DNA of 11,931 nucleotides from a virus (IMGVR_UViG_2529292834_000013), one strand, 5' to 3'; positions 907 through 10,376 are shown, numbered from the stretch's first letter. Made by a program: numbers and translations. The notes: a model not told the origin generated them from the sequence alone.

Positions 907-952
907 TGGTGCCGATAATAGGAGTCGAACCTACGACCTTCGCATTACGAAT
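907..952 (-). other. 3' 46 nt of a tRNA-Thr(CGU) gene (thrW-like), including anticodon loop, T-arm and CCA end; att-site remnant, not a functional tRNA
   Basis: Reverse complement of 907-952 reads TTCGTAATGCGAAGGTCGTAGGTTCGACTCCTATTATCGGCACCA: anticodon CGT in a loop, T-stem GTAGG/CCTAT around TTCGACT, acceptor 3' strand and CCA. Sequence beyond nt 952 does not continue as D-arm or acceptor 5' strand. Confidence 0.65.
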
Positions 953-1031
953 TATAAGAATCCGCTTCTAATTCAAAGCATTACCCCATCAACACTGCGC
1001 TCACACGTCCCACCACATCAAAACATGTAAA

Positions 1032-1071
1032 GCCTTGCAAGCCATTGCGAGGCTTTATGTGTCTCAGTTTT
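1032..1071. terminator. Candidate hairpin with T-rich flanks on both strands (possible bidirectional terminator)
   Basis: GCCTTGCAA (1032-1040), loop GCCA, TTGCGAGGC (1045-1053): 9-bp stem with one G-U pair, followed by TTTATGTGTCTCAGTTTTGT; on the other strand the stem is followed by TTTACATGTTTT. Weak. Confidence 0.25.
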
Positions 1072-1335
1072 GTCCCACCTTTTATTACGACTTGCATAGC
1101 CAATGAAGATAAACGTGACGACAAACGGCGCAGCAATCTTCCTTTCTTTCACACTTTCCCAACCCAGCATGTATACTTTTCTGCCATAACTAAAGTGAAT
1201 GCCTGTTATGAGCAACAAACAGGCATTAGCGCCGCTAGCATATTAGCTACCATTCGACTGCCACACTTAAGATTGATTTCTTAAGTATAACCCGGTTTCT
1301 AATACTACTTATATATTCAGCTCTGAGATTCATTT

Positions 1336-4300
1336 TTATCTCGTAAAGCTAGTTTTATGACTTCCTGTTAGCTGACTGTCTTCATAATAAAATGCTCCAC
1401 TAAACTCCTGTCGACCATAATGATGACTTGATATGAGTGAGCCCCCTATAACGCCCTTTTCACCTAATAATGTCCAAACGATTTCAAAACCATTGTCCCT
1501 TAACATTGTTAAAAATGGTTCTTTTTTAACAAGTAGATGCGGCTTTGAAGCATATACAGCTTCAGCTGCAAAGCAAACCATAGTTCCATTTTCATCATTG
1601 AAGCTACCCTCTACTTCCCCACTTTTTAATCCCATCTTTTCAAAGATTAAGTTACTAGGCTTCAAAAAATTCAAAGTTTCTATTTTTGATTTGTCGAACT
1701 CCTCTTCCCACAAATAATTAATCGAAGTGACACTAACATCAGCTATCTTAGCTCCAGACTCCCGGTCTGTTACCGAAGTCCAGTCAGATCCACCATAATA
1801 ATCTGATTTAAAAGACTTAAATGCTTCGGACCAATAGTACTCCCTATTAAATAATTGGTATCTATCAGTACATTCCGGCATCCACCTGCCCATAAAGTCT
1901 TGAGCTATTGCCCAACATCTAAAATTTTCAAATTCTTCAACTTTAACGATATAACTTCTGATCTGATACCAAACCTCTTTTCGTGGGTGCCCCCAATCAT
2001 CGTTTCCAATAATTTTTGGTTCTTTCCATGATGGATGACTTTCTAATACTATCCATTCATCACCATTATCATCTTTAACTTCAATAAAAGCATATGAATT
2101 AGTTATAGTAGTAGAACTTTTAACCCAGTCTTCATTAGAGCAAGTCCAATCAAACACTTCATCATTAAGCCACCACATTTCTTTATTGCTTATTTTTTTC
2201 GTTCCAGTTTCTTTAAGTAAGATAGTGGGATCTATATCTCTTACGTAAGGCTCCCATGGCCCTTGGTATGGATTTTCCTTTCGTTCGTCACCATAACCTT
2301 CAAAACGAGTAAAATTATCGGCTAGCCTTGCCATGTATTCATAATAAGCAATCCATTGGGATTTTTTACCAATCCGTTCTTGGAATGCCTCTCTACGTCC
2401 ACGTCCAGTTCCTATTTGTTGGTCAAAATTACCATGCTTCTCCGGATCCCAACCAAGCTCTATAACACGATTGAATATAAATTGTTGAGCTAGTCGAAGA
2501 TCAAAGTGTTTATCAGTTTCCAGCAGATTATTATTATGATCCAGGTATGGCTCTATTTCATTTTCAAACTCACTTAACAGATCGTATGACAATGAATTCT
2601 TAAATAATTTCTTGCTCGCCTTTATTTCTTCCTGTGCTTTTCTACCGACCACACGACCAAATTTAATTCCTTCGCATTTATCATCATAAATGAAAGGATC
2701 TGTGGCATCATACAAGTCTTTTTGTTGATCAGTTAGTTTACATTTGAAAGTTTTAAAAACTTGCTTACGGTCAACAGGGGTTTCATTAAACTTGCAACCA
2801 GACCAATCAGAATGATTATAATTTGTTCCAATAGTATATCGTGAAAAGTCACCATCTTCCATAATAGAGCTCCAGAGTTCCCGATAAGGTTCTTTATCAT
2901 AAAGGGACTCTAGTTCCTCTTTTGAAGGAATCTTGTCAGGCCAAATGCTGTTGTAGGGTGGTCTAGTCTTGGATAATTCAATGCTTTCAAGTTCCAATCC
3001 AAGATGATTAGCAAATTCAATAATCTCTCTAGCATAATCTCTAAGTAATATATTTGGATACACATACTTAGAACAAAATACCTTTTGGTAAACAGTTTCG
3101 GCTAAATATTTTAGTTCTTTAATATTATCAGTTCGCAATGTACAGCCTAATGCAACTGCAAATATTCTTTCCCAAACGTAAGGATCATTTACACCATAAA
3201 ACTTATCAATTATTTTTCTCAATACAGGAATTCTTGGCTCGAGTAAACTCACTAAAGCCTTAGTTGAGCAATCTCGAAGTTCTCGGTTACTAGAAGTTAA
3301 AAACCAGCATAAACTAGTTGCAACTAGCTCGATTGACTCATCCGAAACAAAGCTTTTATCTGTTCTGGCCCATGCCCAATCGATTAGATGCCTAAATGCT
3401 GAGTCTTCACTATATTTATATTTAAGTTCTGTAGTCCAAAACGAATCTCGATTTGCCAAAGAATAATCTTTTAGCCAATCATGCAAGAAATTAGCATTAA
3501 AGGGATGGCCAACTAAACCTGAAATAGAGATCACTGCCTCGAGGAAATGATCAAAACTATCTTTAAATTTAAAAACATGTTCATTGATGAAAGGTCTAAT
3601 TTTTTCGAAATAAATAGCCTTAATATCGCGCCATATCAAGCTATCAATAAAGGCTTCTAGTAATTTAAGATTATTGCTGAACTCCGGCAGAAATTCATAA
3701 AGCTCTTTTTCATACCTTTCTGGCAATTGAATAGACAACGCCTCTACTATTCCCGATTTTATATAAAAATCACATTCATCATGAAAATATTTTTTCAGAC
3801 GACCATCAGGCTTAAATTCACTTTCGATATTTTCAACATCATTTAATAAAAAATTAACAGTTAAATGATCATCAAACCTTTCAAAAGCCACATAAACTAC
3901 TTCCTCAGTAGAATTATCATCATTTCTCACTATGCCTTTAGTCAATAATCCTTCGTCAATCAAGGCGCTGAGGAAGGTTTTATCAGCAACATAATCATTA
4001 ACTACAGATTGAACCACTGAGTGAGCATCTTTAAGTGAAATACTATTACGACCAATCTCTAATTTGAATTTTATGATTTCATTGAGAGCATCTTTAACAA
4101 GAGGAAAACTGGGATCGAATGCATATTTTTTTGGCGATGCTAATGATTTATTTACCCCTTCAACTAAAAAGTTAAAAATATTTGAAATCCCATTAAATCC
4201 AACAGGCACTTTGGTTAAACCATTTTTCTTAATGCCTTCACACAATAACTTAAGAAATAGAGGATTTTTAAACTCTGGATTAAGGTTAGGAGATGAAGGC

Positions 4301-8747: not shown

Positions 8748-9266
8748 ATGCTTATTGGCTATGTTCGCGTATCAACAAATGACCAGAACACCGATCTACA
8801 ACGTAATGCGTTGAACTGTGCAGGATGCGAGCTGATTTTTGAAGACAAGATAAGCGGTACAAAGTCCGAAAGGCTGGGACTGAAAAAACTGCTCAGGACA
8901 TTATCGGCAGGTGACACTCTGGTTGTCTGGAAGCTGGATCGGCTGGGGCGTAGTATGCGGCATCTGGTCATTCTGGTTGAGGAGTTGCGCGAACGTGGCG
9001 TTAATTTTCGCAGCCTGACGGATGCTATTGATACCAGCACGCCGATGGGGCGTTTTTTCTTTCATGTGATGGGTGCCCTGGCTGAAATGGAACGAGAACT
9101 GATTGTTGAACGAACAAAAGCTGGACTGGAAGCTGCTCGCGCACAGGGACGAATTGGTGGACGTCGTCCCAAACTTACACCAGAACAATGGGCACAAGCC
9201 GGACGATTAATTGCATCAGGAGTTCCTCGCCAGAAGGTGGCGATCATTTATGATGTTGGCGTATAG
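8748..9266 (+). CDS. pin: Second copy of the Pin-type DNA invertase, inverted relative to the first; frameshifted near the 3' end so the HTH recognition helix is missing (172 aa; probably defective or a pseudogene)
   Basis: About 98% identical to the left copy through ...QKVAIIYDVG, then V-stop instead of ISTLYKKFPVGDK. Substitutions P->L (KSERLGLKK) and V->A (NCAGCE). SD-like GGGGGA about 8 nt upstream of ATG 8748. Confidence 0.8.
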   Translation: MLIGYVRVSTNDQNTDLQRNALNCAGCELIFEDKISGTKSERLGLKKLLRTLSAGDTLVVWKLDRLGRSMRHLVILVEELRERGVNFRSLTDAIDTSTPMGRFFFHVMGALAEMERELIVERTKAGLEAARAQGRIGGRRPKLTPEQWAQAGRLIASGVPRQKVAIIYDVGV

Positions 9267-9359
9267 TCTTTGTATAAGAAGTTTCCAGTCGGAGATAAAT
9301 GAAACCGTAGCACGTCGTATGCAAGATCGTGCTGCGGTTTATGCTTATCACTTAAAGAC

Positions 9360-10133
9360 TCAAAAATTAGGTGAGTAACGGACCGGGGACATAGCTCCTT
9401 TTTTTCTTAATTCATCTGGTATTTTTTTTCCAAGATAAAGATTTGCTATTTCAGGTGGGGCTTCTCGACCTTCAAAACCATAGCGAGAACTTTGTGTTGC
9501 CTCAAAGTCAGGATCCTCGTCCCAGTATTTCATCGTAGGGAAATTTTCACGTGTTGATTTGAGCCATTTATCAGCAATGAAAACCCCTCGAACGATTCCC
9601 CTTACAGTAGCAAGAATGACTTCTGCTTGGCTGGCGCGAGAGACATTAATGCGCCAGCTAAATCGAACCGCATCATAAAGCTCTGAATCCTTTGCACTTC
9701 TGTTAACGGAAATCATTAATGCTTTATGATGAAATGTTATGGTTTCGGGTTGATATGTTGCTATCAACTCTTTGACATGCGCGGCGCCGAATTCATTGCT
9801 GCCAGCACCATTCATGATATTCGTTAACCCAGGGTAGGCATCAATAAGTGCTGCTTCGACTTCGTACGCCGTCTTTTCATCAGTCATTCCGTGTCGATGG
9901 ATGACATGGATAACCTCAAGTCCTGCTAACCTTATTTCTCTAATTTGCTTTAGCTTGTTGCTCAGTAACTCGTCATCATCAGTCGCTGCCACTTCACCGC
10001 GCATATGGGCAAATACGCGGTTACCTTTGCCTTTCCCTACATAGAAGGTGCTTCCGTCCCTCGGATCAATCAATCGGTATACATACCAGCCAAGGTGTTC
10101 AATTACTCCAGAAGGAAACTCAGTAATATCCAT
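9360..10133 (-). CDS. GIY-YIG nuclease-domain protein with ~150-aa C-terminal region of unknown function
   Basis: N-terminal [33 protein letters not shown] is a GIY...YIG motif (compare UvrC GVYRMYD...IYVGKAK), with downstream conserved E/N candidates ([15 protein letters not shown]). Start placed at the internal ATG (MDITEFPSG); the ORF-track start at 10184 is equally unsupported by an SD. Confidence 0.7.
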
Positions 10134-10310
10134 TTTGCAATATCTATGAATTATTTGTGAGACGTATATTAATGAACATTGCAAGGGCTCACAACCAGTA
10201 GTGTTGAGAAAACCATCGGGGAAATGAGGCTAAGTCTTTGAATTTACATAGTACAAAAAAGATACTTTTTCCTCATAATGTGAATTAATTTTATGTTTCG
10301 TTTTATGATT

Positions 10311-10376
10311 GGACCGGTCTCGAAAACCGGAGTAGGGGCAACTCTACCGGGGGTTCAAATCCCCCTCTCTCCGCCA
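10311..10376 (+). other. 3' 66 nt of a tRNA-Ser(CGA) gene (serU-like), anticodon arm to CCA; att-site remnant, not a functional tRNA
   Basis: GGACCGGTCTCGAAAACCGGAGTAGGGGCAACTCTACCGGGGGTTCAAATCCCCCTCTCTCCGCCA: anticodon stem CCGGT/ACCGG with loop CTCGAAA (anticodon CGA), long variable arm, T-arm GGGGG-TTCAAAT-CCCCC, acceptor 3' strand and CCA. Upstream sequence does not provide the acceptor 5' strand or D-arm. Confidence 0.65.

Follow-up and report, generated by a model that had tools for sequence, protein, structure and literature searches.

The 11,931-nucleotide DNA stretch IMGVR_UViG_2529292834_000013, filed as viral and referred to here in its whole length as the window, very probably represents a decayed composite prophage island at the tRNA gene thrW in an enterotoxigenic Escherichia coli (ETEC)-type lineage, in which the cargo ends of two thrW phages were joined at their tail-fibre invertase sites. 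Two facing DNA invertase genes, pinE and pinE', enclose an orphan tail-fibre cassette. Outside each of them lies a predicted anti-phage defence gene, avs2 on the left and a PD-T4-3 gene on the right, followed by a tRNA 3' fragment, of thrW (thrW') and serU (serU'), respectively. A first-pass annotation had taken these two fragments for the ends of a thrW-linked and a serU-linked element, fused at the cassette in the course of a large chromosomal inversion. The fusion at the cassette was borne out by our analysis, and the inversion was not.

The window was compared with 5426 complete E. coli genomes, and its nearest relatives were used for its flanks. At least 80% of the window is present in only 18 of these genomes, mostly at 99.9% identity, among them strains labelled O6:H16, TW10598, B2C and FORC_031, and the window itself is E. 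coli DNA. No genome among the 5426 matches positions 1-11931 in one piece, and the two that cover 1-240 do so only via an IS100 copy elsewhere in the region. The locus in FORC_031 begins with proA, intact thrW (plus), an integrase gene (minus), yfd-type phage early genes, RusA' and the insertion sequence (IS) IS66. It continues with int' (plus), thrW' (minus), avs2 (minus), pinE (minus), the cassette, pinE' (plus) and the GIY-YIG gene (minus), and ends with serU' (plus), an AraC gene (plus), an IS fragment, thrW' (plus, nt 31-70), yagP' and paoDCBA. This further thrW fragment lies at L001 30954-30993 in the 99.9%-identical FORC_031 sequence, equivalent to window positions 12194-12233 and thus about 260 bp past the window end. 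The second thrW' beyond the window, together with thrW-locus genes at both flanks, indicates that both outer ends of the fused block are thrW-linked. The whole structure therefore lies inside the thrW island, between proA-thrW and yagP'-paoDCBA.

The same outer boundary, ptwF/yagP, is found in K-12. K-12 CP4-6 was considered as a template for the island and rejected: its integrase, intF, is of another kind and oriented differently, and CP4-6 shares only the ptwF/yagP boundary. The yagP'-side thrW' is followed, both in K-12 (by ptwF) and in these strains (L001 30994-31066; L005 38256-38323; compare window 838-906), by a relic integrase 3' end of about 55 bp, left over from an older element that formerly lay in the stack at this boundary.

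The centre of the window is organized around two inverted arms of 671 nt (6283-6953 and 8662-9332), which are 96% complementary, with 27 differences, and surround 1708 nt. The left arm contains pinE (6313..6867, minus), predicted to encode a full-length serine DNA invertase of 184 aa with a Resolvase domain (Pfam, 1.2e-51) and a complete HTH_7 domain. The second invertase copy, pinE' (8748..9266, plus), is without the last 12 residues and matches HTH_7 only at positions 1-34 of 45, so that its helix-turn-helix (HTH) is truncated. The left pix crossover site (6922..6947) reads TTTTCATAAACC TT GGTTTGGGAGAA and forms the junction of the pinE upstream DNA with the cassette; the right pix site (8668..8693) reads TTTTCATAAATG TT GGTTTTGGAGAA on the reverse complement. 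The window thus shares with Hin/Gin/Cin/Pin systems an invertase (pinE) that joins a resolvase domain at the N-terminus to an HTH at the C-terminus, and two inverted 26-bp sites that agree with the consensus given for the family in PMC4134206.

Between the sites lies the orphan invertible cassette (6954..8661), comprising Sv (to 7391, plus), tfa (7391-7984, plus), tfa' (7956-8384, minus) and Sv' (8386-8661, minus), which code for two fibre C-termini and two assembly proteins (Pfam Caudo_TAP twice, Gp53-like_C). A constant fibre N-terminus joined to alternative C-termini, also typical of the family, is absent from the window: the tail-fibre constant region adjoins neither end of the cassette, pin upstream DNA lies outside both, and flipping would therefore no longer switch any fibre. 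The open reading frames (ORFs) at 6894-7391 and 8721-8386 share 13 artificial first residues, MMPFARYFCIFIN, read from the pin upstream region. In FORC_031, RefSeq calls one orphan fibre C-terminal ORF an 'integrase' pseudogene, which is a misannotation.

Each half of the interior was found alone as the right end of a prophage. STK39-3-E carries a complete prophage at thrW, ordered thrW-int-yfd early genes-RusA-...-baseplate-tail fibre-cassette-pinE-avs2-thrW'-yagP'. SC476 has ...tail fibre-cassette-pinE-PD-T4-3, followed by other cargo and yagP', and an O157-type strain has thrW-int'-lambdoid remnant-tail fibre-cassette-pinE-PD-T4-3-serU'-AraC-IS'-thrW' (plus), followed by a P4-like element. 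These prophages support the first-pass view that the interior consists of the distal, cargo ends of two prophages lying head to head. An inverted duplication of a single pin gene was also considered as the source of the two arms and was rejected, because the arms differ at 27 positions, the cargo differs, and each cargo occurs with its own pin in independent prophages.

The join between the two halves could be placed by comparison with sites of known context. Fibre-side pix sites in nature, bordered on the outside by fibre constant-region DNA, read CTCTNNAAAACC TT GGTTTGGGAGAA, and pin-side sites, bordered there by pin upstream DNA, read TTTTCATAAACG TT GGTTTGGGAGAA. The flank of the left window site and its half-site positions 1-11 are of the pinE-side type, and from 6924 onward the sequence is that of fibre-side pixL and Sv; homology to the O157-type cassette (pixL-Sv side, 99.2%) begins at 6924, inside the left pix site. 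This change from pinE-side to fibre-side sequence inside pix indicates that the join between the two prophage ends was made no more than a few bases from where the site is known to be cleaved. The fusion point suspected earlier, at the cassette of an invertase-site-cassette-site-invertase product, accordingly maps within the 26-bp pix site.

The cargo on both sides is predicted to function in anti-phage defence. The gene avs2 (1336..5790, minus; RefSeq annotation avs2), cargo of the first prophage end, encodes a 1484-aa protein that would be an anti-phage STAND NTPase, matching Avs2 over its full length (PADLOC PDLC02164, 1747 bits, residues 22-1483). The cargo of the second end (9360..10133, minus) encodes a LEM-3-like GIY-YIG nuclease (Pfam LEM-3_GIY-YIG) with a full-length match to PD-T4-3 (PADLOC, 2.4e-140, residues 1-256 of 256). 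Judged by these profile matches, the two proteins are assigned as Avs2 (AVAST type 2) and PD-T4-3. With both defence matches full-length, a defence gene lies between each pin gene and the attachment site (att), the position that mcrA has in e14.

Two nested inversions were observed among the relatives. The inner one concerns the cassette, whose orientation is opposite in FDAARGOS_1077 (L004) and TW10598 (L014); by coverage pattern, about 11 genomes have it as in the window and about 6 have it reversed. In the flipped cassettes, each pin gene keeps its outer half-site marker, CC or TG, and the inner one, G/T, has changed sides together with the cassette. With only the inner half-sites exchanged, the crossover maps to an interval of about 7 nt spanning the site centre, and the event is identified as a site-specific inversion, with both orientations and exchange at the site centre as in Hin/Gin/Cin/Pin systems. 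On this comparison of genomes, the orphan 1.7-kb cassette still flips at pix.

Two further strains bear on the cassette. In E1620 (L017 20682-24531), an IS100 lies in pinE', and the same inner half-site and the same Sv sequence occur at both pix sites; this cassette could be a real rearrangement or the assembly of a culture of mixed orientation. FORC_031 has a P2-like prophage near yeeA (L010 42051-46193) with another recombinase and tail-fibre invertible region, whose invertase could work on the orphan cassette in trans.

The outer inversion concerns a block of about 11 kb, running from thrW' (minus) to thrW' (plus) and termed block B; in FDAARGOS_1077 it has the reverse orientation and is still flanked by RusA'/int' and yagP'. 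Block B is bounded by 241-bp inverted repeats, 94% identical, each comprising an integrase 3' end or relic, the spacer, thrW' and an arm of about 126 nt. The crossover falls inside an 85-bp identical stretch that includes the thrW' core, and the exchange could have been carried out by either RecA or the resident integrase.

We propose the following history for the island. The ancestor would have held two related thrW-integrating, Pin-carrying phages in tandem, one ending ...tail fibre-cassette-pinE-avs2-att and the other ...tail fibre-cassette-pinE-PD-T4-3-(serU'/AraC/IS cargo)-att. Recombination of the pin-proximal pix (pixR) of one cassette with the fibre-proximal pix (pixL) of the other would invert the DNA between them, most likely in an intramolecular reaction catalysed by Pin. 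The product would be pinE (minus)-pix-cassette-pix-pinE' (plus), with the middle thrW' junction and the neighbouring integrase turned upside down. A later large deletion, represented by the RusA'/int' junction, would have taken out the reciprocal product and most of both phages; IS insertions would have come next, with IS66 or IS100 eroding int', and the block would have flipped at least once since.

Several observations weigh against this history. The source genome of the window lies outside the collection, its flanks being inferred from the 99.9%-identical relatives. No genome yielded the reciprocal junction (fibre constant region-pix-cassette-pix-inverted fibre constant region) or an intermediate from before the deletion, so that the tandem ancestor is a reconstruction. 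The integrase does not pair with one cargo end, since the same thrW-adjacent integrase type occurs both with avs2 (in STK39-3-E) and with the PD-T4-3/serU' end (in the O157-type strain). The block-B-flipped isomer is represented by a single assembly, and either orientation of block B may be the primary one. Finally, the left pix site carries a C at position 12, the base of pixL and fibre-side sites, where pin-side pixR in nature has G. A clean exchange of the central dinucleotide does not predict this C, which may be a polymorphism.

The same misfit with a textbook central-dinucleotide exchange speaks for another origin of the founding fusion, by RecA-dependent homologous recombination between the oppositely oriented cassette/tfa sequences of the tandem prophages. 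The cassettes of related phages have long stretches at 94-99% identity, and recombination between such inverted homologous segments would yield an identical pin-cassette-pin product. We nevertheless consider this origin unlikely, as the switch from pinE-side to fibre-side sequence lies about 3 bp or less from the point at which the 26-bp site is known to be cleaved, and not somewhere within the 1.7-kb cassette, and Pin-type exchange at exactly these sites is evident in the lineage.

Both tRNA pieces were found where the first-pass annotation had placed them. BLAST of E. coli thrW and serU against the window matched thrW nt 31-76 at 952->907 on the minus strand (46/46 identity, E 2e-22) and serU nt 25-90 at 10311-10376 on the plus strand (66/66 identity, E 3e-34). 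ARAGORN detected no complete tRNA in the window, so the two pieces are true fragments. In both, the CCA end points outward and the anticodon side faces the 9.4-kb interior.

The left fragment, thrW' (907..952, minus), is the 46-nt att core of thrW-integrating phages, and the same stretch is annotated as attP in the HK542 record. The C-terminal part of an SfX/HK542-type tyrosine integrase, int' (241..892, plus; Pfam Phage_integrase, E 1.6e-34), reads toward it and is 99.0% identical to SfX int; int', the spacer and the core together are 98.2% identical to HK542 int-attP. From the integrase stop codon to the tRNA 3' end, the spacer (893..906) measures 14 bp, the same length as at the intact thrW/int junction of FORC_031 (L001, tRNA end at 6401 and int start at 6416, with window equivalents 892/907). 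This identity and spacing bear out the first-pass proposal that the integrase beside the CCA end belongs to a tandem neighbour. The gene is truncated by the abutting right end of an IS100 (1..240, plus), which is 100% identical to the IS100 end in FDAARGOS_1077 (L004 31861-32100). The truncation differs between relatives: FDAARGOS_1077 has a direct RusA'/int' fusion (L004 28250-28257), FORC_031, TW10598 and E1620 have IS66 (L001 16229-19000), and the window has the IS100 end.

As an att remnant, thrW' has an exact tRNA 3' copy, a conserved phage arm and a cognate integrase at 14-bp spacing. It does not form a direct repeat with the intact gene: in both isomers the window copy runs opposite to intact thrW, and it is the copy past the window end that is direct. 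The phage-side arm (953..1215) is 95% identical to that of the O157-type strain (L002 23230-22925) and also matches ST131 (L006) and STK39-3-E (L007); its first 126 nt or so, from 953 onward, are also part of the 241-bp inverted repeat flanking the invertible block. Similarity to HK542 int-attP ends exactly at 952, where the core has its inner edge, and what follows is an arm of the type found with the other integrase class, which indicates that the junction is a hybrid of two phages. ST131 has a lambdoid...tfa-avs2-thrW'-int' remnant followed by the next island, an arrangement that makes the avs2/thrW'/int' junction of the window an ordinary tandem-array junction. In the window, thrW' is thus a hybrid junction of this kind, with the arm of one phage and the integrase of the next.

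The order int'-thrW'-arm-avs2-pinE is also that of a circular phage read across attP, as in HK542, and a circular avs2-carrying phage inserted into the cassette of a resident prophage by intermolecular pix x pix recombination would give the observed topology with neither a tandem array nor an inversion. That origin is highly improbable. The end of the HK542-type similarity at the inner core edge, followed by an arm of the other integrase class, marks the junction as a hybrid and not the attP of one phage. Moreover, the Hin, Gin and Pin invertases strongly favour intramolecular inversion, toward which the invertasome, with Fis and the enhancer, biases them.

The right fragment, serU' (10311..10376, plus), is best read as an old attR relic within phage cargo and not as an island boundary. 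It is followed by a captured copy of the 278 bp downstream of native serU (10377..10654, plus), and 10311-10654 is 97.7-98.0% identical to native serU loci (L011, which is FORC_031, and L003); this stretch matches nearly all of the 5426 genomes. Beyond it lie a phage-borne AraC-family regulator (10952..11704, plus; Pfam HTH_AraC, HTH_18) and, at the end of the cargo module, an IS3-family transposase fragment (11746..11931, minus), a RefSeq 'integrase core domain' pseudogene, with the P-arm and thrW' (plus) about 260 bp further on in relatives. The regulator sits where PatE does in the O157-type thrW prophage (L002), the likeness being one of position only; PatE is z0321 on OI-8 (PMC10877973).

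The serU' fragment had previously been interpreted as the end of a serU-linked element, brought next to the thrW-linked one when prophages at thrW and serU recombined at their invertible regions; the resulting chromosomal inversion would span about 1.8 Mb, with the window as one of its two reciprocal junctions. Both tRNA fragments do face inward, the fusion does lie at a pix site, and lambdoid prophages do integrate at serU with a 62-nt core, as seen in UTME-9, where a lambdoid effector prophage lies in situ at serU with this same core. The exact serU 3' copy with its contiguous downstream flank (278 bp, about 98%) also resembles an in-situ attR. However, this flank is not the only copy in the genome, the locus is not serU, and no serU-locus genes lie beyond it: thrW-locus genes flank the region on both sides, and its right-hand end is closed by the second thrW' of FORC_031.

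The native serU locus argues in the same direction. In FORC_031 serU is intact (90 nt) in the order asnT-mtfA-serU, followed by an inserted cytochrome b gene and IS1 and then zinT'-msrQP, and no prophage was found there. The cytochrome b gene and IS1 downstream of serU truncate zinT in this strain (L011 19250-21558). A reciprocal inversion should have swapped one flank at each locus, yet thrW retains proA and yagP'-pao, and serU retains mtfA and zinT'-msrQP. The serU 3' end and flank are present in two copies, the island copy being 97.7% identical to the native FORC_031 copy. Since an inversion cannot duplicate serU DNA and both serU flanks are native, no thrW-serU inversion took place. The module of serU' (62 nt), flank, AraC and IS fragment is also carried, with 99% identity, by the viable lambdoid phages mEp332, ev099 and PhiR70_1, and it occurs in a lambda-attB prophage and in contiguous thrW-bounded prophages of 414 genomes, so that relatives carry the serU half as part of a single contiguous thrW element. 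The large inversion is therefore scarcely credible and ranks lowest among the explanations considered; homologous recombination and circle insertion also rank below the joining of two tandem thrW phages at pix.

On the favoured history, serU' is best read as baggage older than the fusion, carried in phage DNA. It would have arisen when a serU-integrating lambdoid phage excised aberrantly with attR and host flank, and recombination between phages would then have spread the module as cargo. This resembles lambda bio-type capture beside attR, in which host DNA is contiguous with the attR core at the cargo end of the phage. Unlike the bio type, the captured host DNA here is non-coding, namely the serU flank, with AraC and an IS fragment after it, and the capture itself is a reconstruction. 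The AraC gene, in the position of PatE (OI-8), is comparable to the prophage AraC regulators PatE, PsrA and PsrB, which are phage morons.

The closest parallel to the invertase region is the P-segment of e14 with PinE in E. coli K-12, whose inversion has been described (PMC4272514, PMC4134206). Like the window, e14 has a Resolvase plus HTH_7 invertase, 26-bp sites conforming to the family consensus, two alternative fibre C-termini with assembly genes in a cassette, inversion between near-identical strains, and defence cargo between pin and att (mcrA in e14; avs2 or PD-T4-3 in the window). Unlike e14, the window has two facing pin genes, one with a truncated HTH, both sites of the pin-proximal type, and a cassette without a tail-fibre constant region at either end. 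A search of the literature for the pin-cassette-pin arrangement or for thrW inversions turned up only general accounts of invertase switching.

The thrW phages (the SfX/SfV group, HK542, HK75, HK446 and mEpX2) share with the window the 46-nt thrW 3' core and an integrase gene that runs toward the tRNA end, and ptwF, the boundary of CP4-6 in K-12, shares with relatives of the window the yagP'-side thrW' with its short integrase relic. In contrast to both, one att junction in the window is inverted relative to intact thrW, leaving facing att repeats with the DNA between them found in both orientations. Tandem prophage arrays, such as the O157-type array at thrW with a lambdoid remnant followed by a P4-like element, likewise have elements stacked at one tRNA gene, 3' tRNA fragments between them, and decay by IS insertion and deletion. 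Unlike in these arrays, the joining recombination here falls at tail-fibre invertase sites, and it is local and not between distant loci.

All components are thus of known kinds, the arrangement is an unusual derivative and not a new system, and the current understanding of the systems involved is unchanged by the finding. It is very doubtful that the nested inversions amount to a working switch, that is, a phase-variable defence island made from prophage debris; if they did, the resident thrW-type integrase and not RecA would flip the 11-kb block, and cassette flips would alter the expression of avs2, PD-T4-3 or AraC. A cassette that flips without a fibre gene bears on the lifetime of such switches in decaying prophages, and on the assembly and annotation errors that occur there. 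A tRNA fragment is not always an island boundary, and calling islands or inversions from such fragments alone can mislead. As reconstructed here, the window would be a clean natural case of tail-fibre invertase sites remodelling stacked prophages, bringing the Avs2 and PD-T4-3 cargo ends together into one small defence island.

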